Part shown: positions 10,120 to 44,457 of the stretch, one piece after another
Layout: each line of letters starts with the position of its first letter
Numbering within the stretch: position 1 is the first letter of the stretch
NCBI GenBank assembly: GCA_034722435.1
Contig: JAYENX010000015.1
Location: forward strand, 1 to 44,457
Source: Nanobdellota archaeon
GTDB taxonomy: Archaea > Nanobdellota > Nanobdellia > Woesearchaeales > JAHWHD01
DNA length: 44,457 nucleotides
Reading direction: 5' to 3'
Notes under the pieces: generated by a model
The model's input: only the letters and a program-made list of their open reading frames with translations
Database searches by the model: none
What the model was told of the DNA's origin: nothing
Position numbers and translations under genes: made by a program

Positions 10120-10917
10120 TTACCCAATAAACTTTTTCATTCTATTAACAAAATCTGTAGCATCTTTCTTATATTTATCATAAGCTTTACCAGAAATTTC
10201 TTTGACTTGCCTATGCATAATCATTTTTGATAATTTATAAAAATTTCTCATGATATTTGCATACCTTGGCTCAAGCAACTTTTTCTTTACAAGCCTCTCA
10301 TCAAGCATATCAGCTACGTGATTTGGTGATGCAGGAATTTCGCCCATCCTCATAAGAGCAGCATGTGCAGCGTCTATAACAGCCCAGTATAAATCAAGTG
10401 TACCTTGCATTACATGCCATGAAGAGTTAACTATTGATCTTGGCGCTCTATCAAAATATGTATATATACTTTCAAGTGTTGGCCTTATCCTGCCTTGCCT
10501 TAATAATTCTTGTAACGGCGCAAAAAATCCAGTATCAACAACAGGAACACCATCTCTAAGTATGTTTATTCCTACAGGATCCCCATTTCTAATATATTCC
10601 CAGAACGCAGTATATTTCATTGAAACAACATGAAGTTTCTTGCTAGTATCAATAATAGCTTTCTCAGTTATTATTCTATAAGTTTGCACTACTTCTTGAC
10701 TTAACTGTATATTAAGATCATCCAATACTAAAAGAACATCAATATCGCTAAGGTTTCCTTTTCCACCTTTAGCAGTACTACCAAAAAGAATGATACCCAT
10801 AATAAAATCTCCAAATTCATCATATACCTTTTTAGCAAACTTTCTTACTATTTGAAGATCATCATGATTATATTTAGAAAGGTTGGGATTTTTCCTTCTC
10901 TTGATATCTGCTTTCAT
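10120..10917 (-). CDS. Minimal nucleotidyltransferase fused to a HEPN-like domain
   Basis: ILFGSTAKG..SDIDVLLV; C-terminal YWAVIDAAHAAL helix typical of HEPN. Confidence 0.75.
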   Translation of the reverse strand: MKADIKRRKNPNLSKYNHDDLQIVRKFAKKVYDEFGDFIMGIILFGSTAKGGKGNLSDIDVLLVLDDLNIQLSQEVVQTYRIITEKAIIDTSKKLHVVSMKYTAFWEYIRNGDPVGINILRDGVPVVDTGFFAPLQELLRQGRIRPTLESIYTYFDRAPRSIVNSSWHVMQGTLDLYWAVIDAAHAALMRMGEIPASPNHVADMLDERLVKKKLLEPRYANIMRNFYKLSKMIMHRQVKEISGKAYDKYKKDATDFVNRMKKFIG

Positions 10918-28189: not shown

Positions 28190-29371
28190 TCATTTTTTTT
28201 TATTCTTGCCTAATACATAAACTTTCAATGGCGGAAAACCGTTAAATCCAACAGAACTAACCTGATAAGTATAAGCGCCAGTAGTCATAAAATATATTTT
28301 AGAACCTTCTTTTATCTTTGATGGAAGCGAATACTTTTTCTTCTCATATAACACATCATGACTATCACAAGTCGGTCCAGCAATAACAAATTTAGTTTTA
28401 CGTAACGATTTTTCGCTAGTTTCCATTTGAAACTCTAACGATTCATCAACACACTCATCAAGACCTTGATACAATCCAGCATCAAGATAAAGCCATTTAT
28501 ATGGGAGAGACTCTGACTTTTTTGAAACAAGTATAACTTCTGTAACCAATATTCCTGCTGAACCAACCATATATCTCCCAGGTTCAATAAATATACGAGG
28601 TAAATTTTTACCAAAATGAGTTTTTAAATAAGATTTTATTTTTCTACAATAATATTTTAATTTTGGAGTAGGTACCAAATATTGTGAAGGAAGTCCACCG
28701 CCTAAATTAATTACTTGGAGAGAAATATCTACCTTTTTTAAAGCATCAAAAACATATTTACACTGAGATAATGCAGAGTCCCATTGACCTACATCACGTT
28801 GCTGCGAACCTACATGAAACGACAAACCATAAGGATTCAAACCTAGCTTTTTAGCTTCTTTTGCAAGATGAATCACCGTTTCCGGATGAGCTCCGAACTT
28901 TTTTGAAAGTTCCCAATCAGCCCCGATCCCGTCAACTAATAAACGAAAAAATACATTCGACTTTGGTGCGTTGATAGCAATCTTTCTCAGATCAGATATG
29001 GAATCAGTAACAAAAATTCTAACCCCTTTTCGATAAAAATAAGCAATATCTTTAGATTTCTTAATAGTATTACCAAAACTTATTTTACTTACTGAAACAC
29101 CCATCTTTAGAAGATCTTTAAATTCATATATTGTGGCAACGTCAAAATTTGAACCAGTTTTATTAAGTAAAGAAATTACACGCGAATGAGGGTTAGCTTT
29201 AACTGCATAATAAATTGTTGCAAAAGGCATCTCTTTATGCAAATCAGAATAATTTTTAGCAACCTCATTTAAACTTAACACTAAAAAAGGAGTTTGTTTA
29301 CCCTTTGAAAAGCGTTTAACTTCTTTCAAAAAATAATTATTTTTTATCGTCATCTTTCTCTTTTTATTCAC
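28190..29371 (-). CDS. Fold-type III PLP ornithine/lysine decarboxylase
   Basis: YAVKAN, FDVAT, SFHVGSQ, NLGGG, EPGRY, GPTCDSHD, GAYT. Confidence 0.9.
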   Translation of the reverse strand: MNKKRKMTIKNNYFLKEVKRFSKGKQTPFLVLSLNEVAKNYSDLHKEMPFATIYYAVKANPHSRVISLLNKTGSNFDVATIYEFKDLLKMGVSVSKISFGNTIKKSKDIAYFYRKGVRIFVTDSISDLRKIAINAPKSNVFFRLLVDGIGADWELSKKFGAHPETVIHLAKEAKKLGLNPYGLSFHVGSQQRDVGQWDSALSQCKYVFDALKKVDISLQVINLGGGLPSQYLVPTPKLKYYCRKIKSYLKTHFGKNLPRIFIEPGRYMVGSAGILVTEVILVSKKSESLPYKWLYLDAGLYQGLDECVDESLEFQMETSEKSLRKTKFVIAGPTCDSHDVLYEKKKYSLPSKIKEGSKIYFMTTGAYTYQVSSVGFNGFPPLKVYVLGKNKKK

Positions 29372-29621
29372 TCAATATCCCTAAATAAATTAAATAGGTT
29401 ATAGTATATAAATGTTTATTTTAAAGAATGTGATAAAATAATAATCTTACTTTAGAAATGTGTTTATGCGTAGCAAATTAAATGTATGAGAGACTAAGAA
29501 TCCAATATTTCTAAAAAAAATAACTTAAAGTTTTTTAAATTTAACATACACAATTATACATTTTTTTTACTATAAGAAATCAAGAAATAAAACAAAACAA
29601 TAACATCACTCAAAAAATTAA

Positions 29622-30197
29622 TTAATAATATTCCATAATATCTCTAACTTTCTTTGAAATCTGATTATCCACATCATATAATTTATCTAATAAAGATAAA
29701 CAAGCATCAATTCCTGCCGTAATTCCTGCTGAAGAAATAATTTTTCCGTCTTCAATATATTTAACATTTTCACATACTTGTATTTTTGAATATGCCTTCA
29801 ACAAATCTATTGCCCCTTTGTGAGTTGTAGATTTTCTATTATCAAGTAACCCTGCTTCGGCTAATAAAAGAGATCCGGTACAAACAGATAAAAAATATTG
29901 TGCATTTTGATAATGCTCATGTAAAAATTTAATTGTACTTAAATTGTATCTTTCTCGTCTACTTGAAGGACCACCAGGAATAACTAAAACATCTAATGAA
30001 GGAGAAGTCACATAACTAAAATCAGGTATAACCCTGGTACCATTTCCACAAACAACTTCTTGCAAAGATTCTGAAATTCTAGAAATATCATTAGAACTAT
30101 CAGAATTTAAAAAGAGATTAGCAATAGATAAAACTTCAAGTGGACCTACAAAATCAAGTTCTTCAACACCATTATAAATTAATATTCCAATATTCAT
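29622..30197 (-). CDS. DJ-1/PfpI family protein
   Basis: GVEELDFVGP, LVIPGG, SVCTGS, SSAGITAGID. Confidence 0.9.
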   Translation of the reverse strand: MNIGILIYNGVEELDFVGPLEVLSIANLFLNSDSSNDISRISESLQEVVCGNGTRVIPDFSYVTSPSLDVLVIPGGPSSRRERYNLSTIKFLHEHYQNAQYFLSVCTGSLLLAEAGLLDNRKSTTHKGAIDLLKAYSKIQVCENVKYIEDGKIISSAGITAGIDACLSLLDKLYDVDNQISKKVRDIMEYY

Positions 30198-30352
30198 AAT
30201 CTAAATACGAATATCATCATCTTTAAAAGTTACTTTTACATTATCGTAAATTTTTCGAGTAATATTGCGTATAACATCACGGTTATTTAACGAGGCAGAA
30301 GGAGAAATCAAACCCCACAATATTTAAATACTTAAAATTAATTCTTGATTAT

Positions 30353-30826
30353 ATGCGAGAAATAAAATATGAAGATTTAGATGAAAAACAACGAAGAGTA
30401 TTAGATGAAGCTGAAAAAGTAATGACCACAGCATATAATCCGTATTCTAAGTTTTATGTTGGAGCTGCACTTTTATCCCAAGATGATCGAATAATTACAG
30501 GTTCAAATGTAGAGAATGCAGCGTACGGTTCTACAATATGTGCAGAAAGAGCAGCGATATTGAGAGCAAATGCTATGGGAATAAGAACATTTGATAAAGT
30601 AGGAATTATTGCAAGAGGGGAAAATTTTGACACAACTAAAGTAACTGCCCCATGTGGCAGTTGTAGACAGATGTTATATGAATCTGCTCAAATTTCAGAA
30701 AGAGATTTAGAAATAGTTATGGCGACAACTAAAAAAGATAAAGTTGTTGTGGCAACAATCAATGAACTTTTACCACTAGCATTTGGTCCAAAAGATTTGG
30801 GAATTGATGTTAGAAAATATAAATAA
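30353..30826 (+). CDS. cdd: Cytidine deaminase
   Basis: AYNPYSKFYVGAA, NVENAAYG, CAER, PCGSCRQ. Confidence 0.95.
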   Translation: MREIKYEDLDEKQRRVLDEAEKVMTTAYNPYSKFYVGAALLSQDDRIITGSNVENAAYGSTICAERAAILRANAMGIRTFDKVGIIARGENFDTTKVTAPCGSCRQMLYESAQISERDLEIVMATTKKDKVVVATINELLPLAFGPKDLGIDVRKYK

Positions 30827-30902
30827 TGACTTTAATTTCTAGTTAAAACTAACATCTGGATAAACAACATTTTATATATTAATAATTTCTTAAACTATCA
30901 CA

Positions 30903-31355
30903 ATGATTAAACTCAAACCATTCAAACAATCAAAAGGATATTGTGGACCTGCTTCATTAAAGATGGTTCTATCTGCTTATGGGATAAATAAATCTGAAAA
31001 ATATTTAGCTAAAACAACAAAAAGTAGTAGAACTAGAGGATGTGCTGAAGAAAATATTGTCAAAGCAGCAGAAAAATTAGGATTCAATGGATATGTGAAA
31101 CAAAATTCCTCAGTTAATGAAGTTAAAAAGTTAGTGAAAAAAGGAATTCCTGTAATTGTAGATTGGTTTTCTCCTGAAGAAGCAGGACATTATTCTGTTG
31201 TTATAGGCTTTGACAAAGATAGAATCATTTTAGCAGATCCACATTTTGGCAAATTAAAAAAACATAAAATTGAATGGTTCAAAGAAAGATGGTTTGATTT
31301 ACCTTTTGCAAAAAAAGGTCCACTTCTAAAAGAAATTATTGTAATACATCGATAG
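30903..31355 (+). CDS. C39-like cysteine peptidase
   Basis: QSKGYCGPASL, GHYSVVIG, ILADP. Confidence 0.8.
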   Translation: MIKLKPFKQSKGYCGPASLKMVLSAYGINKSEKYLAKTTKSSRTRGCAEENIVKAAEKLGFNGYVKQNSSVNEVKKLVKKGIPVIVDWFSPEEAGHYSVVIGFDKDRIILADPHFGKLKKHKIEWFKERWFDLPFAKKGPLLKEIIVIHR

Positions 31356-31574
31356 CGCGCCAAGTCCAATTGAAACTAACATCACAATTAAGAGATATGT
31401 GAAGATTAAGGCAACCCACAGAAATTCGATTTGGATGAAATCCCTATATAGAACTGACATCAGAATTACGTCTAACTCCAAAGAAAAGTTTAGGGAAATC
31501 GCTTAACAATTTAGCAAAAGCAACCTAATTTTTCCTTTAATTACCTCCAAATTCTTTGACCCTATAACGAAGGA

Positions 31575-32774
31575 TCAAACTACGTCCGCAGAGGCAAGAG
31601 AATTCTTACTAACCCAAGATAAAATTAAAAAATATACGAAGAAAAGGAATAAACCTACACCCATCATCAAAAACGCAGCAGAAGGAGTATAGATGTCCGT
31701 AAAATACCCTATTAATGGCGCAAAAACTGCATACATTAAATTTCTTGACATACTTTGTATAGAAATTACTGTTGCACGATGATGAGAATCAGTATGTTTA
31801 TTTATTCCTTTATTTACTAAAATATCTCTAACTCCACATACAAATGATATTATACAAATCAATATTAAAACAGATAATTTATTAACAAAAAATATTCCAA
31901 TAAAAGATAAGCTAGCAATTAATAAAATTAAGATTAATAATCTATTTTTTTTTGTTCTTCTTGTGATTTTTCCAGCGGCTAAATTTCCTAATCCTGCTGT
32001 AAAAAAATATAAAGATATTGCAATACCAACTATATATTTTGGAAATGTACTTTGCTCATAGAATGGTTGAATTAGAAACCAAGTTATATGCCCGAGCGCT
32101 GCAAACAACCCAAAGTAAATTATAAGATTTTTAACATATTTATGATTATAAGAAAACTTAATTGCTTCAATAAGATGTTTATAGTAATTCTTCTTATGAA
32201 CCTTTTTATGTATTGGAGGTTCTTTAAACCATAAACCTATAACGAATGCTAGAAAGAAAAGGAAGGCCGAAATAAAGAACAAATTTCTATACCCTAGATA
32301 GATTGCTAAAAACCCGCCCGCAAGCGCTAAAATTGACCAAGTCAATTGAGAATAGAAATTACCTCTACCAAAAATCTTAGCGTATTGATTTTCTTTTTCT
32401 AACTCTTTTAATGAATCATATAATAATGCAGAATCTGCACCTGATCTTAATGCCCAGCAAAAGGCAATAACCACCATTGCGATTAAAAAAGTCCAATAAT
32501 TAGTTCCAAATCCAAAGATTACATAACTTATTGAAGCACAAAGCATGGCTAATGCAACAGATAATTTTCGTCCTACTAAATCTGCAAACACTCCGCTTGG
32601 AACTTCCAGCATTAAAACTACTACAACAAAAATAGTTTGTAGTGACATTACCTGTGTCATCGATAAATAATTTGCTAAAAGAAATAATACAAATGTAGAA
32701 ACAGTAAAATCCAAAGTACTAACTACTCTGAATAAATAGAATTTCCAGATATTAGACTCGTACGCATTAGCCAT
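31575..32774 (-). CDS. MFS transporter
   Basis: About 12 TM segments, LEVPSGVFADLVGRK, SGADSALLYD; start set at MANAYES. Confidence 0.9.
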   Translation of the reverse strand: MANAYESNIWKFYLFRVVSTLDFTVSTFVLFLLANYLSMTQVMSLQTIFVVVVLMLEVPSGVFADLVGRKLSVALAMLCASISYVIFGFGTNYWTFLIAMVVIAFCWALRSGADSALLYDSLKELEKENQYAKIFGRGNFYSQLTWSILALAGGFLAIYLGYRNLFFISAFLFFLAFVIGLWFKEPPIHKKVHKKNYYKHLIEAIKFSYNHKYVKNLIIYFGLFAALGHITWFLIQPFYEQSTFPKYIVGIAISLYFFTAGLGNLAAGKITRRTKKNRLLILILLIASLSFIGIFFVNKLSVLILICIISFVCGVRDILVNKGINKHTDSHHRATVISIQSMSRNLMYAVFAPLIGYFTDIYTPSAAFLMMGVGLFLFFVYFLILSWVSKNSLASADVV

Positions 32775-32916
32775 TTCTCGTCGAGAAAAACAGCACAATT
32801 TATAAATATTACCCATTCGTCGTCGGCAATCACCAACTTACCGTCGAGAAAATCAGCAATCTTTATAAAGTTTTCCCGGCTTCTCGTCGATAATAAACAT
32901 TTTGGAGGAATAAAAA

Positions 32917-33300
32917 ATGAAAGAAGAATTAATGAACGCAGATTTAAGGACTAGAATTGAAACGGAATTACAAAATAAAGATATTTTAAAAAAAATCAAG
33001 ACTGTTGCAAGAAATCTTGGAAAGGAGAATAAGGATAACGAACAAACCATCCATATATTCCAAGAAGGAGACATTAGTATAAATTATTGTTTTTGGTGGA
33101 GAGGGCCTTATGTTCGGATTAATGGCGGAACTGTTTTTGAGGACCATGCCTGTCTTACATATCACGGAATTCCAGTGTATCAATTTGACGAAAACTTAAG
33201 AACACCAAATATCAGTAGATTCAGTCCTGGAGAATGGGAGAAAGAGCTACAAACATTATATGAGAGAGGATTACAGGTTGAAAATAGCCGTAATAATTGA
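32917..33300 (+). CDS. Hypothetical protein
   Basis: ORF track; SD GGAGG. Confidence 0.55.
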   Translation: MKEELMNADLRTRIETELQNKDILKKIKTVARNLGKENKDNEQTIHIFQEGDISINYCFWWRGPYVRINGGTVFEDHACLTYHGIPVYQFDENLRTPNISRFSPGEWEKELQTLYERGLQVENSRNN

Positions 33301-33456
33301 TTAGTCTCAAGCATTCGAAGTTTTCGACTTAAACAATCAGTAGTTTATTTAGTAACTTCCCCCTTTAATTTGAATGCTAGTTAATCTCAATCTGATAAGA
33401 CATTGTGTTGGCAAGATAGACTCTCCGTTACAATTTTCGTTAACAACGAAAATCCT

Positions 33457-33465
33457 GTTAATTGC
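33457..33465. repeat. Right core of a decayed cassette-boundary hairpin (GTTAATTGC)
   Basis: Exact reverse complement of GCAATTAAC at 33901-33909. Confidence 0.7.
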
Positions 33466-33532
33466 CCCGAGCCGTTAGGCGAGAACGCAGCGTGGTCGAG
33501 GAGCGAAGCGACGAAGAAGTCACAATTTCTCG

Positions 33533-33850
33533 CTACTTATCAAATTTGAAATTCTTATGAATCTCCTTATCATATCTTTCCCAATTAAGTGTCTTTCTAA
33601 GAATTACATGAACAGTATTTTTTGTAAAGATAAAGTATACAATAAAATTCTCGGTTTCTTTATGGAAATACATTTCTCCAGATTCTATATAAAACGCATA
33701 TGAATGAATATTTTTGGCATCATCTTCATAAAGATTATCATAAATATCAAAAATTAAATCAATTTGTTTTAGCGTTTCATCTCCAGGAGAAATTTTATAC
33801 CACATGACATCATCAGTGTTACTTAAACCGAGGATTTTTTCTTTGCTCAT
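33533..33850 (-). CDS. Hypothetical protein
   Basis: Start set at MSKEK; TTTATAAA about 25 nt upstream. Confidence 0.6.
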   Translation of the reverse strand: MSKEKILGLSNTDDVMWYKISPGDETLKQIDLIFDIYDNLYEDDAKNIHSYAFYIESGEMYFHKETENFIVYFIFTKNTVHVILRKTLNWERYDKEIHKNFKFDK

Positions 33851-33902
33851 GTAATTAGTTAATAATTGGGGATTTATAAATCTTGCGAGAAATTGTAATT
33901 GC

Positions 33903-33922
33903 AATTAACATCGCTGTTATAT
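33903..33922. repeat. Minimal cassette-boundary site AATTAAC-ATCGCT-GTTATAT
   Basis: Left core, ATC and right core with only 6 nt between cores. Confidence 0.6.
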
Positions 33923-33990
33923 TTCCCGAAGGGCTGAAATTTAGTGCAACGTTCCGCAGGAAAATTTCAGAGTCGTCGTGTCTATATTTT

Positions 33991-34734
33991 TTATTGAGGG
34001 TTTCCGCCGTCTCTAGAAAGAACATATATAGAAACATCTCCTAGATGAAGTCCTTGTTTGGATTCAACCTTATGTTCTTGAGAAATTTTCAGTTTATATT
34101 TTTCTACATGGTTTGCAGGGTCATTTTCCTTTCCAGCAAAATGAAAATAAGGCATGATTATGACTCCGTCTTCTTTTAGACATTGAGGAATTTCTTTGAA
34201 AAATCTTTGTAGAAGTTCAGTACCTCCAAGCATACTTCTTCTCAACATTTCATCTTGATTTGGGTCACCTTCAAATTTTTCAGGTTCTTCAGAAAAAAAT
34301 GGATGATTGAATAAAACAACATCATAGATTCTGTTTTTGGGAAGACCATTAAATAAATCGCTTTGATAAACTTCAGCATTTGCAAGTTTATGTTGTATGA
34401 TATTTTTTTGGGTGTTGGCAACTGCTTTAGGATTAATATCTGCAAACGCAATAAATTTCGCTCCATATTTGGACATTACTATTCCTTGTGTTCCGGGTCC
34501 ACACCCAATATCAGCAACATCTTTTCCAGAATATAATTCTTGATGTTCATATAAAAATCTTGCAAGATGACTTGCAGTAGTAATAATGTCTGACCCAAAA
34601 ACGCCTCTTTCAATCAACAAATCAAGAGAAATATCTGTATTTTCATCTAATATTATATTCCTTATTCCTGATTCGCGTTGATGAGCATGTAATTGTTTTT
34701 TTACAAGATCATATTGTTCTTTAGTGAATGTCAT
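33991..34734 (-). CDS. N-type SAM methyltransferase (PrmC/HemK-like)
   Basis: VADIGCGPG, ADINPKA, SDLF, NHPF (NPPF-like); start set at MTFTK. Confidence 0.8.
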   Translation of the reverse strand: MTFTKEQYDLVKKQLHAHQRESGIRNIILDENTDISLDLLIERGVFGSDIITTASHLARFLYEHQELYSGKDVADIGCGPGTQGIVMSKYGAKFIAFADINPKAVANTQKNIIQHKLANAEVYQSDLFNGLPKNRIYDVVLFNHPFFSEEPEKFEGDPNQDEMLRRSMLGGTELLQRFFKEIPQCLKEDGVIIMPYFHFAGKENDPANHVEKYKLKISQEHKVESKQGLHLGDVSIYVLSRDGGNPQ

Positions 34735-34784
34735 AATGAAAGGAAGTATAAACTGATTTATAAATGTTAGGCGGAAAGAAAACA

Positions 34785-35117
34785 CTATTTTGTAAATATT
34801 TTAACTAATTTTTGCTCAACTTCTTTTACTTTTGAATTAGCTAGTGCTCCTGTTTTGTATAAGATTATGGCTTTGTCAGCTGTAAACAATCTATTAGGTC
34901 TGATCATACTTGTTAATTTCAAGTTTCCTTGCTTGAAATCATCATTCATAAGATTAATGGAATAATCATCAAATCTAGCTTCGCTTGTTATCTGAGCAAG
35001 AATTAAATCATCTCCTTGCAAATTAGCAACAACCAAAGCAGGTCTCTTCTTAGACCTACTCAAATCTGAAAAAGGAAATGGCAGAATAACAACGTCTCCC
35101 TTTACAAATTCTTCCAT
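34785..35117 (-). CDS. PemK/MazF family toxin
   Basis: KGDVVILPFPFSDLSRSKKRPALVV, QITS. Confidence 0.92.
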   Translation of the reverse strand: MEEFVKGDVVILPFPFSDLSRSKKRPALVVANLQGDDLILAQITSEARFDDYSINLMNDDFKQGNLKLTSMIRPNRLFTADKAIILYKTGALANSKVKEVEQKLVKIFTK

Positions 35118-35350
35118 GCTTCATCATCCTCTTTGCTATTCCAATCTTTAGCTAAAACCTTTTCACTAGCTATAGCAGTAGCCATTCTCTCATTTATTTG
35201 TTTCATTGTCCTTAATTCAATATGATCTTCAAAGGCCAAAATAGCTACTTTAGTTCCAGTTTTGAAGCCTTCAGCTTCCCTAATATCCTTGGGAATAGCA
35301 ATTTGTCCTTTTTCAGTTATTGTAGCAGTTTTCATTTCAACTATTGGCAT
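35102..35350 (-). CDS. AbrB/MazE family antitoxin
   Basis: ITEKGQIAIPKDIRE; C-terminal EDDEAWKNL; overlaps the toxin gene. Confidence 0.9.
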   Translation of the reverse strand: MPIVEMKTATITEKGQIAIPKDIREAEGFKTGTKVAILAFEDHIELRTMKQINERMATAIASEKVLAKDWNSKEDDEAWKNL

Positions 35351-35446
35351 AATATCACCTTTCTTACAAGTAAGAAGTGTAAGAAATATATAAATGTTTC
35401 GTTTTCTTTCCGCCTATTTTCCTTTTTCGGATAAATCCTGAATTAC

Positions 35447-35525
35447 GTATAACATCGGAATTTAACGAAGGCGATTTGGGTGGAGAAACCTGTAAGGTTT
35501 CGGAACCGTTAAATTCCTGTAAAAC
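35447..35525. repeat. attC-like hairpin site (79 bp)
   Basis: GTATAACA-TC-GGAATTTAACG ... CGTTAAATTCC-TGTAAAAC. Confidence 0.7.
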
Positions 35526-35745
35526 GACCCTACGCGCCCACTCTCAGCGTCTGTACATATCAAATTCTGTTTTAACTGTAGGCAAATTGGGCGAGTAAAC
35601 TCTTTGACGTGCCATACGCGCCCATATTGTATAAAATGGCTAAACTTCTATTTAAGCTCTTCCCCCGTTTGACGAATTTAACTCGCTTTTGAAGTTTTTA
35701 GAAGTCGTAGTGGTTACGGGGTTTAATAGAAATAAAAAATGAAAA

Positions 35746-36210
35746 TTATTCAATAACAATTTTAGGACTATCTTTGAAACATTTCGGTGCAATAATTCCT
35801 TTACCGCGAACATCAAAACATTGTGCAACCTTTTGAATTACTTTAAAGTATTCTTCTTTATCTTTAACCCTTAATTTGACAAGATAATCATAATCTCCAG
35901 TTGTATAAAATACTTCTTGTACTTGAGGGATTTTAGATAATTGTTTTGCGGGTTTTTCTAAATCAACTTCCTTTCCAAGCTTTGCTTGACCAAAAACAAA
36001 TGCTACATAACTTTTATCTAATTTTTCAGGTTCAACGATAACTGTAAAACCTTTAATTACGCCCCATTCTTGTAATTTATTTATTCTTGCCTGTACTGTA
36101 GAAGTTGGAATTTTTAATTGGTGTGCAATTTTTGTAATTCTTGGAACACACAAATCCTTATCTTGGATTAATTTCAATATTTTCTTGTCTATAGGTTTTA
36201 TTTTATCCAT
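35746..36210 (-). CDS. Lrp/AsnC family regulator
   Basis: IDKKILKLIQ..IAHQL..STVQARINKLQEWGVIKGF; V.EVFYTTGDYDYLVKL. Confidence 0.9.
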   Translation of the reverse strand: MDKIKPIDKKILKLIQDKDLCVPRITKIAHQLKIPTSTVQARINKLQEWGVIKGFTVIVEPEKLDKSYVAFVFGQAKLGKEVDLEKPAKQLSKIPQVQEVFYTTGDYDYLVKLRVKDKEEYFKVIQKVAQCFDVRGKGIIAPKCFKDSPKIVIE

Positions 36211-36338
36211 TTTTTTATTATATTAATGTATATTATATGTAAATATAAGTATTATTTATATACTTTACGTAAAAATTAGCATAAAATTAATATTAATTGT
36301 ATAGTATCCTAATTTATAATACTTTGGAGGATGAAATC

Positions 36339-36650
36339 ATGAAAAAAATAACCCGATTTGTAGGAAAAAGAATCACAATTGATGGAGTTATAGGTACTAT
36401 TTATCAAGAACAAGAAAGGGGGTTTTGTGAATTTGTAAATAGAGACCAGATCGCAATCAAAACCATAAAAATAGCAAGTAGATATCTTAAAAATAATGGT
36501 GAAAGAAATTACAAAATTAAAGATAAATTTTTAGATTCAGTAATTGCATCTAAAGAAACGTATGGCTCATTAATTGCACACTGGAGTGGATATTATCCTT
36601 GCGGCAATTATCTTAGACGTGATCAAGAATTAAAAAACGCAGGAATTTAA
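36339..36650 (+). CDS. Hypothetical protein
   Basis: Start set at MKKIT with SD GGAGG. Confidence 0.5.
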   Translation: MKKITRFVGKRITIDGVIGTIYQEQERGFCEFVNRDQIAIKTIKIASRYLKNNGERNYKIKDKFLDSVIASKETYGSLIAHWSGYYPCGNYLRRDQELKNAGI

Positions 36651-36690
36651 TATTTATTTTTTTCTTTCCCGTACCCAACCCATAATTCTT

Positions 36691-36697
36691 GTTAAAC
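36691..36697. repeat. Orphan right core GTTAAAC
   Basis: CTTGTTAAAC context as at 43283-43292; complementary to 37689-37695. Confidence 0.55.
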
Positions 36698-36756
36698 CGC
36701 TTAAAGGTGTCTACAAAAACGCAATATTTAAATATGTAGACACCTTATAATTATAT

Positions 36757-37650
36757 ATGTTCTTAGAAATACGAAAGATTGGAGAAAGTAAAAAATACTA
36801 TCTTGTGCATACATATAGAATAAAAAGTAAAGTAAAAAGGATTTCTAGGTATTTAGGGTCTAATTTAACTAAGAAGGAATTGAGTCAATTACAAAAACAG
36901 GCAGAGCAGGAAATTCTGGAGGAGATTAAGGAAAAGAATATTCTTGAATTTGAGCTTACAAAAGAAGAAATAGAAGAGTATAAGAAATATGAAAAAGATA
37001 TTAAAATCCAACATTTGCAAAAGTTAAACTGGAAAAGATTTACTGCTAATTTTACATATAATACTAATGCTATAGAAGGCTCAACTGTTCTTCTGTCAGA
37101 AGTTAAAGAGTTACTAAGTGGAGAGGAAAAACCTCATGATAATGAGGAAATTGAAACCTTGAATGTAGCAGAAGCAATTGATTTTATTAAAACTTCTAAA
37201 CAAAAAATTACTGTTGCATTTATCAAAAAATTGCATAAGATTTGTTTTAATGGCACTAAAGGATTTGCAGGCAAATTAAGAGATGTTAATGTAATTATAA
37301 GAAATGCTCAAGGAGATATAATTCACGAAGGTGCTCCGATTAAACAACTTCAACCATTGCTTAAAGAGCTTTGTAAATGGTATTTCAGTCATAAAAACAA
37401 ATACCCTCCGCTGTTACTTGCAGCTGTCATGCATAACCAATTTGAAAAAATACACCCATTTCAAGATGGTAATGGGAGAGTTGGCCGGTTATTGCTAAAT
37501 TATGTTCTTTTAAAGCATAATTATCCACCTATAAATATAAGACTCAGAGATAGAGTAAAATACTACCATTGTTTACATGAATATGACCATAAGAATGATA
37601 TTAAGACAACTTTAAAGTTTTTAATTTCTCAATATAAGAAACAGTTCTAG
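36757..37650 (+). CDS. Fic domain protein (class II, internal inhibitory motif)
   Basis: HPFQDGNGRVGR active motif; TNAIEG inhibitory motif. Confidence 0.93.
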   Translation: MFLEIRKIGESKKYYLVHTYRIKSKVKRISRYLGSNLTKKELSQLQKQAEQEILEEIKEKNILEFELTKEEIEEYKKYEKDIKIQHLQKLNWKRFTANFTYNTNAIEGSTVLLSEVKELLSGEEKPHDNEEIETLNVAEAIDFIKTSKQKITVAFIKKLHKICFNGTKGFAGKLRDVNVIIRNAQGDIIHEGAPIKQLQPLLKELCKWYFSHKNKYPPLLLAAVMHNQFEKIHPFQDGNGRVGRLLLNYVLLKHNYPPINIRLRDRVKYYHCLHEYDHKNDIKTTLKFLISQYKKQF

Positions 37651-37688
37651 GTGTCTACAAAGTAGAGTGTAGACACCCTTCTAATTGC

Positions 37689-37845
37689 GTTTAACATTAG
37701 GTTGAATAGACGTTTTACGTAAGTGTTACGTAATTATTGTTAAAGAGATTAAAATATGCACGCTGTTTTCTTGAATGTATGTAAAAAAAATATAACCTTG
37801 GAAAGAGAAAAAATAGAAATGGCGAGGCGAATGGTTGTTAAGTGA
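37689..37845. repeat. Degenerate attC-like site
   Basis: GTTTAACATT ... TTGTTAAGTGA; interior pairing is partial. Confidence 0.5.
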
Positions 37846-37901
37846 CCCGGACGAAGTGAGAGCGCAGCGTGGCAAGGAAAATCTTTGATTTTCCGCAGAG
37901 T

Positions 37902-38642
37902 TTATTTGCCCCCACATACAAAAGTGTATTTTAAGGATTTGCCAACCCAATCTTTTTCTTCAAAATCTGTGCTTTTTACAACTTCAATAAGATTCAACCC
38001 TGCTGATTTTATTTCAGAAAGAGCTTCTTTTTTAGTATAAAAATGTAAAAACATTTTTTCTTGCATTTTTGTTTCTGGATTATTAGCTTCAATCCAAGTA
38101 TCACCTAATTCTTCATCAGGTTTCTTGAATATTGCTCCAATTTCTTTTTTCGTCCAAAACCACCAAAACTTAAATCCACTTTTCCGTTCGTGTGTAGTAA
38201 AAAACATAACCCCTTTTGGTTTCAGAAAATTCTTGCATTGTTTTAGTAATTTAATCCTATTATTTATTCCTTTAATATGCTCAATCGTTTGAGTTGGAAG
38301 CATAATATAATCAAAAGAATTTTCTGGATAATTTAATTTTGTAATATTTTTAGCAATAAATTTAGTATTAGATATTTTATGTTTTTTAGCATATTCGTTT
38401 GCATACTTAATCATATTTGGAGCAATATCAACGCCAATAATTTCAAATCCTCTTTTTGCAAGAACAAATGCTTCTCTTCCCGCACCACAGCCAAGATCTA
38501 AAATCTTTTCTTTGGATTTGAAATATTTATCAATAACATATTTTTCAGTTTCTAATAATCCATGCTTGATTATTTTAGCATAGTGTTCTACTTCCCTTTT
38601 TGAATCAAATGTTTTTTTTACACTTTGGGTTGAATCTGACAT
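37902..38642 (-). CDS. Class I SAM-dependent methyltransferase
   Basis: ILDLGCGAGR, GVDIAP, FDYI. Confidence 0.9.
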   Translation of the reverse strand: MSDSTQSVKKTFDSKREVEHYAKIIKHGLLETEKYVIDKYFKSKEKILDLGCGAGREAFVLAKRGFEIIGVDIAPNMIKYANEYAKKHKISNTKFIAKNITKLNYPENSFDYIMLPTQTIEHIKGINNRIKLLKQCKNFLKPKGVMFFTTHERKSGFKFWWFWTKKEIGAIFKKPDEELGDTWIEANNPETKMQEKMFLHFYTKKEALSEIKSAGLNLIEVVKSTDFEEKDWVGKSLKYTFVCGGK

Positions 38643-38705
38643 ACTATTAAGATTGGGTTGGCATTATATAAATTTTCTTATAATTAGTGGGGGCAAATAA
38701 ATTTC

Positions 38706-38890
38706 ATTTAACATCAGTTTTAAACGACCCGATAGGGCTCGAAGGCGAAGCCATCGAGGGTTCAATTCTGACCTCGAGACTCCTTTAAAGTGAGGCTCGA
38801 GCTGGAAGAATTGAATCTGGGTAAAATTGGGGAAATCGCTTGGCGATTTAGGCTATGCCGACCCAATTTTCCGTTTAAAACTTGTTAAAT
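38706..38890. repeat. attC-like branched hairpin site (185 bp)
   Basis: ATTTAACA-TC-AGTTTTAAACG ... CGTTTAAAACT-TGTTAAAT with several internal stems. Confidence 0.8.
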
Positions 38891-39213
38891 ACCTTTACCC
38901 TACGAAGTGGGGTAAAGTTGCGTCCGCAAAGTAAAATTTCCATTTCTTATCAATTCTGCCGAAGGCAGACTATATGTGCGTAGCACTGGGGAGTTCAGTT
39001 CTTTCTAATAAGCGAAGCATTACATCAAGAACAAGTATCAAGGGGGAGTTCGTTACATCAAAGCCGAAGGCTCTTTTAGTTAGTACATTCAGGGGAGTTC
39101 CGTTCAATTAATGCAAACACAGTGAGCTATCAACAACAAGTATTATGAGGTAAAAAACAGCATATTCATTTAAAAGCAAATATTTATTAATATTTGAGTA
39201 TTTATTATATATA

Positions 39214-40720
39214 CCTGACCTCGCCACTTCTTAAAAAGAAATAAAATCTCCCATAGTGTTTGGTGAAACCCTATGAGAGAAAATGTTAATTTTGCTATAG
39301 GCAATATAGCATTGATGGATAAAGTAGACCACAAATTTAATTTTTTCGGTCAACTCTTTGGTAGTGTAGTAAACAAAGCTAAAAACCTAAAGGAAGATGC
39401 TAAGTTGTTCATGTACAATCGACTTGGAAAATGCGTATCTATAAATCAGATTTTATCTGTTTATCCTCTTGAAACCTTTGAGTATCTTGGCTTCAAAGAT
39501 GCGCCAAAAGAAAGAACATTGTACAGAGACTTGGAACGTATTGGCTTATACCACAAATTCATCATAAGCAAATACCAGCAACTCATAAAGAAAAATGATC
39601 TTGTTTCAAAAGAGCAGTTTCCTGATTTCTCCTCAAGTTATTTCGAAGGTAAGAAGTCTGAACTTAGCAAGTTAGGCTACTCCAGAGATCATATGCCTGG
39701 GAAAGAACAGCTTACATGGGGAATTAGTACAGGTTCCAACAACATCCCTACGGCATTGACAATCCAAAAAGGCAATGTCCAGGACAAAAAGCATTTCAAA
39801 TTTATGCTTAAAACAGTGAGCAAGGTGCTGGATAAAGAAGATGTTCTTGTCTTTGATTGCGGTGGCAACACTAAGAAGAACAAGAAAAAAATTAGAAAGC
39901 TTAAGTTTCATTATCTTACACTCAAAGCAAAGAAAAAGAAAACATACAAGAAATATATACAGCTTTTCAAGATAGGAAAAAAGCAGAAAATCAGCTTAAA
40001 TGGAAATTATTATGAATGCGTTAAAATAAGAGAAGAAGATGAGATAAAATACATCTTCTTCTCTAAAAAACTATACAAAGACCAGATTAAGAAGAGGAAA
40101 AAGAAGTTTAAGAAAGAACTTGAAAAGAATGAAAGCAAGCTTACTAAAGTAAAGAAAGGCAAATCTTTCTCAACCTGTATCTCAAGAGAAGGTTATATCG
40201 TAACCAAAGGCTCTTTGCAGAAAACTCTGGATGGAATAAAAAACCCTTTCATAACTGGATTAGAAGGCTACTTCATCCTTGAATCATCTTTGGATGATGA
40301 GCCAGAGAAGGCTCTTATCTTATACAAAGACAGAGACAAATCTGAAAAGCTTATCAGAGACATGAAAGAAGGAACAGAGCTTAGGCCAATAAGGCATTGG
40401 AGCAAGTGGGCTATTATTGGTTATCTTGTGATAATTTTCCTCACAAACTGCCTGATTAATTTGACACTTTATTTAGCTGAGAACCCCATCGTGAAAAACG
40501 TAAAGTTACTCAAAAAATTCCTTAACAATTTGACACTTACTGTGGTATATCCAAGAAATAGGTTTAGATTCACTATTTTGGCTAACGATTCTGAAGAAAT
40601 GAGGTCTGTTTTAGGGGATTGGCTGGATAAATACAGGGATAAATCATTAGAATTACGCTGGTAAAGCTGAATGGCGAAATGGGTTAGGGCATTTGTTTAG
40701 TTAGAGATGGCGAGGTCAAG
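39214..40720 (+). mobile_element. IS1634-family insertion sequence, 1507 bp
   Basis: TIRs CCTGACCTCGCCA / TGGCGAGGTCAAG; 6-bp duplication TATATA at 39208-39213 and 40721-40726. Confidence 0.9.
39273..40664 (+). CDS. IS1634-family DDE transposase
   Basis: [15 protein letters not shown]...[24 protein letters not shown]. Confidence 0.88.
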
Positions 40721-40728
40721 TATATAAT

Positions 40729-40959
40729 ATGGCAAAAAACCCAAAACTAACTCAAAATGAGATAAAGGTCTTAAAAAAACTTATTGAACAGGCCAGGGTT
40801 TCAGATACTGAAATTGCTAAAAATATGTCCATTTCTCAACAAGCAGTATATCAGATAAGAAACCGCCTCGAGGAATTAGGAGTAATTAAGGGATATATGC
40901 CTATTATTGATTTTAAAAAAATTGGAATAAATTTGCTATTTAAGGTAACATTTAAATAA
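40729..40959 (+). pseudogene. Truncated Lrp/AsnC regulator (HTH only)
   Basis: ARVSDTEIAK..ISQQAVYQIRNRLEELGVIKGY; ends after 76 aa; cut off from its promoter by the IS. Confidence 0.6.
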
Positions 40960-41005
40960 AATTAAAGTTACTTTAAAAGCAGAAAGACAAAGAAAGTTTT
41001 AAGTT

Positions 41006-42694
41006 GTGGTTGCAATGAAAGACATTAAAACTAATGAATCAAAAAGAAAATTTGGAAGAATCAAAGAAATTGCAGGAGTTTTAACTAAATCTGGCTTTGG
41101 ATATATTGTAGAACGAATACAGCTAAAGAGGAAATTGCCATTTCTTAAGAGGCTCTCGCATTATGAATCTTTGGAGGAATTAGACTCAACAGTGCCGGAA
41201 AGAGTTAGATTTGTGTTAGAGGAGCTAGGCACAACTTTTATTAAATTTGGCCAGATATTAAGCACGAGGCAGGATTTGATTGGAGAAGAATTTGCAAAAG
41301 AATTTGCCAAACTGCAGGACAATACGCCACCATTCTCATATGAGCTTGTTAGAACAACAATTAAAGAAGAAGTTGGCCGTTCGATTGATTCTCTATTTGA
41401 AGAATTTAACAATAAACCCCTGGCATCAGCTTCAATTGGGCAGGTACACAAGGCAAAGTTAAAAAACGGCAAAATTGTTGCTGTTAAAATCCAAAGACCA
41501 GGAATTGAAGAACAAATCAAAGAAGATATTAATATAATGCGGAAGCTGGCAAAATTAATTGAGAAGCATATCCCTGATTGGAAATACTTCAATCTTCCAG
41601 TTGTTATTGATGAGTTTGAGCGTTCTATTAAAAAAGAGTTAAACTATATCCAAGAAAAGACAAACATGAATAAATTCCAAAGCATGTTTGAAGATGATGA
41701 AAACATTGTTGTCCCGAAAGTTTATGATGAATATTTAACAAGACGAGTAATCATAACTGAATTTATCGATGGGGTTAAAATAAGCGAGCTATCCAAATCC
41801 AAAAGACATTTTAATAAACAATTGATTGCAAAGAGGGGTGCGGAAGCTTTTTTTAAGCAGGTTTTGGTTCATGGATTTTTTCATGCAGATCCTCATCCTG
41901 GCAACCTATTAGTATTAGAACAGAATCGCATTTGTTTTTTAGATTTTGGAATGGTAGGTCATATTGATAAGGAATTTATGGATAATCTTGCACAGTTATT
42001 TGTATTTCTCATTGATTACAATGTTAACGGCTTAATTAATCAGCTTACTAATATGGGTTTCATTAATGAAACTATTGACATTAAATCATTTAAGTACGAT
42101 ACCATGGATATAATGGATTTATACCACGGTGCTCAGTTGAAAGATATACGGCTTGGAAAAATAATCAGTGAGCTTATGATGCTATTGGTTAAATATAATA
42201 TAACTCAGCCAAAAGAGATAATCTTGCTAAGCAGAGCGTTAATTATCATTGAAGGTATTGGAAAAGACCTTGATCCTGAATTTAATATAGTTGTTGTATG
42301 CAAGCCATATGCAAAGAAAGTAATCAGGCAAAGAATAAGCCCCAGAAGGATTATGGACATAATAAAAGATGACTTTTTTGAGTTTGAACATTTTATAAAA
42401 ATACTTCCAAGAACTATGAAAGAGATATTTAGTAAGATTGCCCTTGGTAAAATCAATATTGAATTTGAACATAAAAACCTCGATAGGTTTTCAAGTAACT
42501 TAGAAAGAATCAGCAATAAAGTTTCTTTTGCATTAATAATATCTGCACTGATTGTTGCTTCATCACTTATAATGCAGACTGACAAAGGGCAACTCCTTTT
42601 TGGGTTTCCTATACTGGGTATAGTCATATTTTTCATAAGTGCTATAATGGGATTAGGATTAGTTATTTCAATAATTAGATTCAAAAAAATGTAA
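41006..42694 (+). CDS. UbiB/AarF/ABC1 family atypical kinase
   Basis: IKFGQILSTRQD, ASASIGQVH, VAVKIQRP, FHADPHPGN, LDFGMVG. Confidence 0.95.
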   Translation: MVAMKDIKTNESKRKFGRIKEIAGVLTKSGFGYIVERIQLKRKLPFLKRLSHYESLEELDSTVPERVRFVLEELGTTFIKFGQILSTRQDLIGEEFAKEFAKLQDNTPPFSYELVRTTIKEEVGRSIDSLFEEFNNKPLASASIGQVHKAKLKNGKIVAVKIQRPGIEEQIKEDINIMRKLAKLIEKHIPDWKYFNLPVVIDEFERSIKKELNYIQEKTNMNKFQSMFEDDENIVVPKVYDEYLTRRVIITEFIDGVKISELSKSKRHFNKQLIAKRGAEAFFKQVLVHGFFHADPHPGNLLVLEQNRICFLDFGMVGHIDKEFMDNLAQLFVFLIDYNVNGLINQLTNMGFINETIDIKSFKYDTMDIMDLYHGAQLKDIRLGKIISELMMLLVKYNITQPKEIILLSRALIIIEGIGKDLDPEFNIVVVCKPYAKKVIRQRISPRRIMDIIKDDFFEFEHFIKILPRTMKEIFSKIALGKINIEFEHKNLDRFSSNLERISNKVSFALIISALIVASSLIMQTDKGQLLFGFPILGIVIFFISAIMGLGLVISIIRFKKM

Positions 42695-42711
42695 AATGGA
42701 GGTAAACAAAA

Positions 42712-43014
42712 ATGGTAGATTTGTTAAAAAAAGGTTTAATGCTTGGTCTTGGTATTACTACCATGACCAAAGAAGCAATAGAGAAGACTGTGAAAGATTT
42801 ACAAGAGAAGGGAGAGATTAATACAAAAGAAGGCAAAAAGATGGTTGAAAACTTGCTGAAAAAGTCTAAAAAACAAAGTGAAGAAATAATGAAGAAAGTT
42901 GATGAGAGAGTGAAAAAAGTTTTGAAAACAATGCCCGTAGCAACTAAAAACGACCTTGAATCGCTTCATAAAAAGATTGACCAGCTAATAAAGAAAGATA
43001 AAAAGAAGAAATAA
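42712..43014 (+). CDS. Phasin-like helical protein
   Basis: KKGLMLGLG..TMTKE..E..V..L..KGEI; ATKNDL. Confidence 0.7.
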   Translation: MVDLLKKGLMLGLGITTMTKEAIEKTVKDLQEKGEINTKEGKKMVENLLKKSKKQSEEIMKKVDERVKKVLKTMPVATKNDLESLHKKIDQLIKKDKKKK

Positions 43015-43209
43015 GTGATTTTTTCTTATTTCTTCTTTTTGTAATACAATTAGTTTGCATCTCGATAAAAAATAGACTAGTAATATGAGAACTCCCCCTT
43101 AAGTTTAAAATTGTCCCGTTCTAATTAAATTTCTTTTTCAAAGAAAAAGACTATATGTCCGCTAGGACGAACTCCCCCTTGTTTTTTAAAAAAATGGAAA
43201 TTTTATTGT

Positions 43210-43292
43210 ATTTAACATCGCGGATTAAAAAAAGTTCGCGTAGCGAATTTGGGAAAAATCAGCAAGATTTTTCTTTTTAATCCTTGTTAAAC
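43210..43292. repeat. attC-like hairpin site (83 bp)
   Basis: ATTTAACA-TCGC-GGATTAAAAA ... TTTTTAATCC-T-TGTTAAAC. Confidence 0.8.
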
Positions 43293-43419
43293 TCCCCCGA
43301 ACGAAAGTGAGAGGTCGCAGACCGTGGGTCGAGCGAAGCGAAGAAGTCGAGAAAGAGTGCGTTCTATCCAAAAGAGCGAATGCGATACATCAAGAACAAC
43401 AATCAAAAGGGAACAAAAT

Positions 43420-44373
43420 TTATTTGAATAACTTCTCATAAAATTTCTTTCTTCCAATTACATCAATTTCATCAAGTGCATTAGATAATATTTTAAACAA
43501 ATCTTTTCCTTTCCATTTGTCATACATTAACCAAGACATTATCATTAATGCTGCAAATTTAAATGCATCAAAAAGATGTTCTTTTTCTGTTTTTGTTAAA
43601 GGACTAATTTCTTCGTATGAATTTACAATTTTTTTAGCAATTGAAAAATCCATTTTATTAGTATAAAATCTTGCCCAGTACAAAATCAGGATTCCTATAT
43701 CGTGAATTCTATATCCATAATGTGAATCATCAAAATCAAGAATTCCTGAAATTTCATTATTATGAAATTTAACATTGGATTTATCAAAATCACCATGTAC
43801 AATGCTTTTAGTTAAGTTTGTTGGAAAATTTATTGTATCTAATTGAGATTTTATAATATTATATCTAAATTTTCCTTTATCTTTATCTTCAAATCTCTTC
43901 TTCTCTTCTTTAGTAGCTTTAATGCAAAAATCTTTACTTCTTGGTTCTTTGTGAATATAATTATTTACATCATAATTTTTAGTTAATTTATGTAGTAAAG
44001 CTAATTTATGAACTAATTCTTTAAATTGAATATTATTAAGATTTTTCAAATGTCTTCCAGATATATATTCAAAAATGATAAATGGTTTCTTATCAAATAT
44101 CCCGATAAATTGATGCTTTTTATTTTCAATTGGTTTTGCAATTGGATATTTTTTCTCTGAAAGAAATTTTAAAAGTTTGGCTTCAAAGTCTACTCTTTTT
44201 TTGGTTCTATTTTCATAGTATCTTAAAACAAATTTACCTTTTGTTGTTTTAATTAAAATATTTGTTTGAACATAGCCCGCCTTGAAAGGTTTTGATTCTT
44301 TAAAATCTCCAATGTCGTAATTGTCTAATATTTCTTGAAAAACTTTTTTGGTAAAATTTGTTTTAACAGCCAT
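43420..44373 (-). CDS. Homoserine kinase type II / aminoglycoside-phosphotransferase-like kinase
   Basis: GYVQTN, FVLRYYE, IVHGDF...NV, ILDFDD. Confidence 0.85.
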   Translation of the reverse strand: MAVKTNFTKKVFQEILDNYDIGDFKESKPFKAGYVQTNILIKTTKGKFVLRYYENRTKKRVDFEAKLLKFLSEKKYPIAKPIENKKHQFIGIFDKKPFIIFEYISGRHLKNLNNIQFKELVHKLALLHKLTKNYDVNNYIHKEPRSKDFCIKATKEEKKRFEDKDKGKFRYNIIKSQLDTINFPTNLTKSIVHGDFDKSNVKFHNNEISGILDFDDSHYGYRIHDIGILILYWARFYTNKMDFSIAKKIVNSYEEISPLTKTEKEHLFDAFKFAALMIMSWLMYDKWKGKDLFKILSNALDEIDVIGRKKFYEKLFK

Positions 44374-44444
44374 AACTTAATCTGATTCTTAGAAGTATAT
44401 AAATTTTGTTCCCCCTACCATTTTTTTAGCCCTCTTTCTCGATT

Positions 44445-44457
44445 GAGTTTAACATCG
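44445..44457. repeat. Left core of the next cassette-boundary site (cut by window end)
   Basis: GAGTTTAACATCG; reverse complement of GTTAAACTC at 43286-43294. Confidence 0.75.

Follow-up and report, generated by a model that had tools for sequence, protein, structure and literature searches.

The window analysed here, 44,457 nucleotides (nt) in length, is the entire contig C15 (JAYENX010000015.1) of the genome G000 of a Nanobdellota archaeon of the order Woesearchaeales (1.30 Mb, 33% GC, 94.5% complete). The genome is archaeal, with aIF2-gamma, a form III-like RuBisCO and a PACE-CTERM S-layer protein all encoded on this contig. The stretch from 29.6 to 44.5 kb is a cassette array, in which accessory genes are separated by short sites with the cores TAACA and TGTTA, some of which fold into hairpins with a small bulge. 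The cargo between the sites (29608–44441) comprises genes for DJ-1/PfpI, cytidine deaminase, C39 peptidase, an MFS transporter, methyltransferases, MazEF, an AsnC regulator, Fic, an ABC1 kinase, phasin and an APH-type kinase, in mixed orientations. Left and right are given throughout as read on the + strand of the window.

On this strand the motif TAACATC was found at 29601, 30272, 30850, 31377, 33906, 35450, 38709, 43213 and 44450, with the ATC beginning at +4, exactly at the nine positions listed by an earlier first-pass annotation. All nine copies were intergenic, co-oriented, and inside the last 15 kb of the window. The whole window contained 20 TAACATC matches against 7.4 expected, and none of 100 shuffles reached 20. 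The genome-wide strand bias of the motif was discarded as a signal since it proved to be a coding artefact (3-base periodicity, GAT-GTT codons). A hairpin scan of the 1.3 Mb genome (TAAC, 0–7 free nt, a perfect stem of at least 9 bp, 0–7 free nt, GTTA or GTAA) returned 35450, 38709 and 43213 as the only clean sites.

These three sites shared one fold, in which the TAACA/TGTTA duplex was followed by a 2-nt bulge (4 nt against 1 at 43213) and then by a perfect stem of 10–11 bp, on either strand. The first site (35442–35527) consisted of the left box at 35442–35454, the TC bulge at 35455–35456, the stem at 35457–35467/35507–35517 and the right core TGTAAAAC at 35518–35525. The second, a long site (38701–38892), had the TC bulge at 38714–38715, the stem at 38716–38726/38872–38882, a structured interior of 145 nt and the right core TGTTAAATAC at 38883–38892. 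The third, ATTGTATTTAACA (43205–43294), had a TCGC bulge at 43218–43221 opposite the single T at 43284, the stem at 43222–43231/43274–43283 and the right core TGTTAAACTC at 43285–43294. The perfect stems measured 11, 11 and 10 bp, with 3, 3 and 5 free nt on the left and 1, 1 and 2 on the right, and the bulge coordinates given previously were exact. Folding of both strands with DNA parameters, which the first-pass annotation had asked for, reproduced the bulged hairpin with otherwise full pairing; the energies of the two strands were −14.3/−13.4 kcal/mol at 35450 and −18.3/−17.0 kcal/mol at 43213, with −51 kcal/mol at 38709, the z-scores ranged from −3.0 to −9.9, and the interiors from 38 to 145 nt.

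The remaining sites were reduced to various degrees. The distal end of the array was a lone, stemless left core, TAACATC at 29601–29607, adjoining the stop of the DJ-1 gene, with housekeeping genes to its left. It was followed by a decayed or collapsed site (ATTGCGTATAAC, 6 nt, GTTA; 30264–30289), a left core alone without hairpin (..AAAACTAACATC; 30842–30856) and a decayed left box, ATTGAAACTAACATC, also without hairpin (31369–31383). A small hairpin with a degenerate left core lay at 33430–33465, with the right core TGTTAATTGC at 33456–33465, and a collapsed site, ATTGCAATTAAC-ATCGCT-GTTATATTT, at 33898–33924, where the cores stood 6 nt apart without a stem. Between the first two full sites were the orphan right core TGTTAAACCG (36690–36699), a short variant site with TAACATT (37684–37747), in which ATTGCGTTTAACATT, an inner 8-bp hairpin and TGTTAAAG gave only a weak fold (−6.2 kcal/mol, z −1.7), and the orphan right core TGTTAAGTGA (37836–37845), succeeded by a GC-rich tail block. 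The last left box, ATTGAGTTTAACATCG (44442–44457), was cut by the contig end. The earlier list of sites was therefore right in its positions and incomplete, as it had left out the 37684–37747 variant, the collapsed pair at 33898–33924 and the orphan right cores at 33456, 36690 and 37836.

Each right core was related to the left box that follows it. The 5 variable nt that come after a right-hand TGTTA corresponded, in reverse complement, to the variable bases in the left box of the following site. The complementarity was 10/10 at three of about seven junctions (33456/33898, 38883/43205 and 43285/44442) and 8–9/10 at others, among them 36690 with the left box at 37684 (8/10) and 37836 with that at 38701 (9/10). 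The same relation was present in the relatives L005, L006 and L007. Integrons follow the same rule, the sequence past the crossover being part of the adjacent cassette. Contigs C14 and C35 of the genome were found to be further pieces of the same system, assemblies broke at the hairpin sites, and no target-site duplications were seen at the sites.

The pattern was not confined to this genome. The 15-mer ATTG-nnnn-TAACATC (ATTGnnnnTAACATC) was present in 43 of 61 related genomes, a tally that takes in the unpublished genomes G001 and G002, and the reversed control pattern was near zero; in the relatives the copies tended to occur in clusters, and many lay at the end of a contig. Locus L019, from G001, was viewed, but none of the conclusions rests on it. 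At least 120 public contigs carried the hairpin pattern, and their labels were mostly Woesearchaeota, Pacearchaeota or Nanoarchaeota. Matches of a 17-base pattern in bacteria (candidate phyla radiation and others) were set aside, as about 70 were expected by chance in 596 Gb and the contigs were small, and no bacterial claim is made. The general layout, on the + strand, was ATTG-nnnn-TAACA, two unpaired nt that were usually TC, a covarying stem of 10–13 bp around an invariant TTA(A) core, a variable interior, the return arm, and T-GTTA with 5 further nt, which are complementary to the variable part of the left box belonging to that cassette.

The conservation of the bulge was measured in two sets that were re-scanned with a rule not specifying it. 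In about 40 regions from relatives carrying the ATTG-nnnn-TAACATC pattern, about 16 of 24 genuine sites had exactly ATC to the left of the stem and T to its right, the remainder having mostly ATT, AAC, ATAT or ATCT on the left; in 120 public contigs with the hairpin-arm pattern, the ATC/T combination was found in 29 of 38. Thus the TC bulge was retained in a larger alignment, on which the first-pass annotation had made its proposal depend. ATC was also present in 31 of 35 unique sites of the class with 3 nt on the left and 1 on the right, although these offsets were the selection criterion of that class. The unpaired bases lay on the arm of the ATTG box (ATTGnnnnTAACA box) in all but two sites, one of which was fully paired while the other, proximal to a recombinase, had 2 against 3. 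Each stem paired at 96% of positions with its own arm and at a mean of 66% and a maximum of 73% with the arms of other sites (1000 partner shuffles). Stem positions 1–4 and 8–10 exchanged GC, CG, AT and TA pairs, and positions 5–7 were an invariant or near-invariant TTA. Judged from this covariation, the hairpin structure is under selection.

Many sites in the relatives were collapsed to TAACATC, a palindrome of 2–10 nt and TGTTA, as seen in L012 (G044:C74), L009, L005 and L011, and G044:C74 was almost wholly of this kind. Their core spacings were 6, 8, 10, 12 and 14 nt, in the even steps that symmetric deletion of a hairpin palindrome predicts.

The recombinase of the system was sought beside the arrays. 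The 393-amino-acid open reading frame adjoining the present array (28190–29371) was rejected as an integrase, being an Orn/DAP/Arg decarboxylase. The genome has four tyrosine recombinases, one XerA orthologue on contig C2 and three divergent ones, none of them near a site and none an IntI. Among 151 genomes of the order, a tally including the unpublished genomes G001, G113 and G133, no IntI reached the cut-off of the profile TIGR02249, and all hits were split at profile positions of about 180 and 237. In the relatives, on the side towards which the + strand reads, the arrays ended in a special hairpin, TAACA-NN-TATTAAGCG-like and with an AT-rich stem, 100–250 nt before a Xer-like gene. Such genes, of 257–278 amino acids and on the same strand, stood 100–250 nt downstream of a left box in at least 16 related loci, including those of G008, G015 and G058 and at least a dozen public contigs chosen by the site pattern alone. 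In G020 and G054 the Xer-like gene was just past the last site, but the left box was degenerate or more distant.

The best NCBIfam model for these array-adjacent genes was XerA_Arch, with 186–217 bits, under its cut-off of 220 bits. The IntI profile matched them in two pieces, at positions 2–179 and 238–313, which indicates that they are without the IntI-specific insert. The closest solved structure was XerA of P. abyssi (4A8E), matched in one stretch with an E-value of 1e-47, whereas IntI (2A3V) was matched in two. Where a genome had two Xer genes, the copy by the array was 34–47% identical to the XerA orthologues, and the orthologues were 47–58% identical to one another. The first-pass annotation had proposed a divergent recombinase with a different recognition code; the divergent recombinase is supported by context in relatives, where Xer-like genes without the IntI insert stand beside the arrays, and by the 0/151 tally for IntI, but no such gene stands beside the present array in the assembly. 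Dozens of the Xer-like genes of the order start 200–1500 nt from a contig end, which fits unassembled arrays beside them. In L007, on the reverse strand at about 10180–10300 (G054:C57), a tRNA-like, possibly interrupted sequence was observed directly upstream of the array-adjacent recombinase gene.

The point of exchange was located from sites whose two sides have different histories. At the site on C14, the 100-nt flank was 94% identical to the flank of 43213, while the hairpin shared 96% identity with the hairpin of 35450 but only 75% with the one at 43213, and the switch fell inside TAACATC. A cassette common to G020 and G058 had 80% identity over 834 nt, with homology up to TTAACAT and divergence thereafter; past TTAACAT, one of the two genomes continues into the special hairpin and the other into a collapsed site. 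In addition, the special site always stayed beside the recombinase gene, a constancy that only cassette entry at its left core would predict. These observations favour an exchange at the left conserved TAACAT core, on the side of the bulge, and the DNA both left and right of this core has been exchanged. Complementarity alone cannot place the cut in the left or in the right core. A model with the crossover in the right-hand TGTTA, in which the hairpin would close the left cassette at its 3' end, was rejected in view of the loss of homology between G020 and G058, the C14 chimera and the constant position of the special site. With exchange at the left core, a cassette would carry along the hairpin on its left. 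At C14 4199–4275 and on C35 (reverse strand, about 2640–2800), two different hairpin sites were seen to break off after the same 7 nt of the right arm, and both continued with one sequence, GATATACAATTACAC..., which resembles an inverted copy of a small site at the other end of C35; the arrangement suggests an inversion, or else a site-specific insertion within the stem.

Taken from the sequence evidence above, the hairpins are probably the recombination sites of an integron-like cassette array served by a Xer-type tyrosine recombinase, and not by an integron integrase. The substrate bound by the recombinase would be a folded single strand or a cruciform extruded from the duplex, with cleavage in the TAAC/GTTA core. 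The special hairpin beside the Xer-like gene may act as a docking site, the counterpart of attI, at which new cassettes would enter. Entry at the docking site would make the decayed, stemless sites at 29.6–31.4 kb the oldest and put the array's own recombinase past position 44457. Strand and orientation would be marked by the 2-nt bulge next to the cleaved core, as they are by the extrahelical bases and unpaired spacer in attC sites. On balance, we are inclined to extend this to the DPANN archaea (Woesearchaeales, Pacearchaeales and relatives), which may run a widespread gene-capture system of their own, with a dedicated Xer paralogue, hairpin sites and a 2-nt bulge as the mark of strand and orientation, either as an independent invention of the integron principle or as a living relative of the transition from Xer to IntI.

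Several observations weigh against this interpretation. The window contains no integrase, no recombinase stands by the array in this assembly, and the array runs off the contig end. The only strong Xer of the genome, that on contig C2, scored 236 bits against the cut-off of 220 and grouped with the XerA of relatives at 47–51% identity. The array-adjacent recombinases were not clearly one clade in a small, poorly resolved tree. Five of the nine listed TAACATC copies (29601–33906) were without any stem, and collapsed sites cannot fold and must be either dead or recombined in double-stranded form. No empty site was seen among the loci looked at, and misassembly at a repeat could in principle account for the C14 chimera. 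Finally, the R''/R' cores fit the integron consensus, which leaves room for an IntI acting in trans.

The last point bears on the comparison with attC sites. In the canonical attC, cleavage takes place in the R box, at the A/C step of RYYYAAC, and the site further comprises a degenerate L box, a central spacer that stays unpaired, two extrahelical bases and a variable terminal structure (PMC7439510, PMC8946536). The cores here fit RYYYAAC/GTTRRRY, as in ATTTAAC...GTTAAAC at 43210–43292 and TTTAAC...GTTAAAT at 38709/38884, while the R' at 35450 was degenerate (GTAAAAC). The sites were also imperfect palindromes that fold as single-stranded hairpins with variable terminal structure, and they stood in a co-oriented array, with the sequence past each crossover being that of the following cassette. 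In place of the unpaired central spacer of about 5/6 nt, one A-T pair after AAC/GTT was followed by the one-strand bulge and 10–11 perfect pairs. Where the R''/L'' arm of attC has two extrahelical bases set apart from each other, the present sites had one bulge of two adjacent bases, and no base within the stem was unpaired. The bulge lay on the arm of the exchanged core, opposite to the canonical arm of the extra bases. The array-adjacent enzymes lacked the additional domain of IntI near patch III. The layout thus works like an attC, as a folded, asymmetric, two-box hairpin, but lacks three of its defining features and the integrase feature. The non-canonical geometry claimed in the first-pass annotation therefore stood, with neither spacer nor separated extrahelical bases; the bulge is better read as a counterpart of the extrahelical bases shifted beside the core, which that annotation lacked, as it lacked the exchange point on the bulge side.

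The array could instead be an ordinary cluster of attC sites without an integrase (CALIN), whose atypical sites are recombined by a true IntI that is unassembled or acts in trans. Besides the core consensus, the hairpin-plus-cassette layout and the typical cargo (MazEF, Fic, methyltransferases) speak for it, as does the report by Ghaly et al. 2022 (PMC9668308) of archaeal integrons and CALINs, including some in Woesearchaeales and Pacearchaeales, found with canonical models and with few integrases, which have the IntI domain; the archaeal attCs functioned with IntI1. Given the consensus cores and those integrase-less clusters, some of the present arrays may already have been detected by earlier surveys. 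We consider the CALIN explanation unlikely, however, since no IntI exceeded the cut-off in the order, the gene beside the arrays is Xer-like without the IntI insert, and the sites have neither spacer nor separated extrahelical bases. Data S9 of the same study (PMC9668308) gives nine archaeal attCs with 5-nt spacers, and in the Hadarchaeota attC, read off the printed sequence, the R''/L'' arm, which faces the exchanged R', bears two separated extra bases, whereas the extra bases here are on the arm of the exchange core. Furthermore, TAACATC was absent from the attC sequences in the accessible part of the supplements (PMC9668308). None of six contig prefixes of site-bearing metagenome-assembled genomes occurred in that part, which may list assembly accessions only.

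An equally improbable account takes TAAC-N6-GTTA as the real site, a double-stranded, Xer/dif-like border of modules similar to pdif, and the hairpins as inserted palindromes without a role in recombination. It draws on the collapsed sites with 6-nt spacers at 30272 and 33906, the many mini-sites in relatives and the Xer type of the enzyme. Nevertheless, mini-site spacers of 6, 8, 10, 12 and 14 nt point to symmetric deletion of a palindrome, not to a fixed spacer, and 10 bp of complementarity were kept across hairpins of 70–180 nt with covarying stems. The sites nearest to the recombinase were themselves hairpins, and all sites were co-oriented, unlike those of pdif modules. Non-recombining intergenic repeats (terminators, palindromes of the repetitive extragenic (REP) type or miniature inverted-repeat transposable elements), to which GC-rich intergenic hairpins in an AT-rich genome that fold equally well on both strands might be ascribed, are very improbable, because each cassette has its own complementary flank, chimeric junctions occur at the core, the sites cluster in arrays ending at a recombinase gene, and assemblies break at the sites with no target-site duplications seen.

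With the hairpins taken as folded recombination sites of a Xer-type enzyme, the system can be set beside those already described. It shares with integrons a co-oriented array, cassettes with or without promoters that carry one imperfect-palindrome hairpin site each, AAC/GTT cores, exchange within a conserved core, a special site beside the recombinase gene, and accessory cargo rich in toxin-antitoxin genes. It differs in the Xer-like recombinase without the IntI additional domain, in having no central spacer and a single 2-nt bulge 1 nt from the core on the exchange-core arm, in the extra conserved ATTG 4 nt outside the core, in a docking site that is itself a hairpin, and in cassettes that are often multi-gene and of mixed orientation. 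P. abyssi XerA (PDB 4A8E) and its kind are the closest protein family of the array-adjacent recombinases, but dif is a single double-stranded 11-6-11 site per chromosome, whereas here many co-oriented, folded sites of variable length were found, and the array gene is a paralogue at 186–217 bits, under the XerA cut-off, with a separate XerA orthologue in the same genomes. Nothing convincing was found in this genome for a dif-like palindrome built from the same arms. A near-palindrome at C31 7449–7478, AGTAATATTAAC-AGTATC-GTTAATTGCAAT, reuses the left-box sequence of 33898 with a 6-nt spacer and is a possible dif-like or attachment site.

A precedent for Xer enzymes acting on folded DNA is offered by CTX-type phages, whose integration by XerC/XerD on a folded single-stranded attP was reportedly described by Val et al. 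in 2005 and is said to be reviewed by Das et al. in 2013. There, too, a Xer enzyme acts on a forked single-stranded hairpin with a single strand exchange, but the case concerns a bacterial phage at dif, with neither cassette arrays nor a dedicated paralogue. In the pdif or Xer-module arrays of Acinetobacter plasmids, Xer-type sites likewise bound accessory gene modules; the pdif sites are double-stranded, of 28 bp and alternately inverted, whereas all sites of the present array are hairpins on one strand.

Structure-specific recombination of single-stranded DNA has its model in integrons, which are defined by the extra domain of IntI together with the spacer and extrahelical bases of attC. If the present interpretation is true, a plain Xer enzyme and a simpler mark of asymmetry would show which features the reading of folded DNA needs, and the finding would bear on the origin of IntI from Xer. 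It would also explain much of the turnover of accessory genes in the tiny DPANN genomes, and integron surveys requiring IntI and canonical attC models would under-count such arrays. For a Xer-linked cassette system or array, no matching paper was found in the literature. In Rfam, no family was matched in the window, and the database has no attC family.

Further repeats were observed around the sites. A GC-rich tail block followed the right cores of several sites (33461–33532, 37841–37901 and 43290–43370; also 33925–33975), with the motifs ..CCCGRACGAAGTGAGAG..GCAGCGTGG.. and a recurrent small hairpin whose loop motif was AGTGCAACG. Motifs of this block recurred after right cores in contig C35 and in L006, L013, L035 and L036, and it may be an accessory part of the site. 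The Fic gene (36757–37650) was flanked by hairpins at 36706–36744 and 37650–37678 with an identical stem, GGTGTCTACA/TGTAGACACC, unrelated to the cassette sites. Finally, a repeated 27-mer, TACATCAAGAACAAGTATCAAGGGGGA-like, was present at 39021–39047, 39126–39152 and 43386–43412, within the long spacers that follow two of the sites, and recurred on C35.

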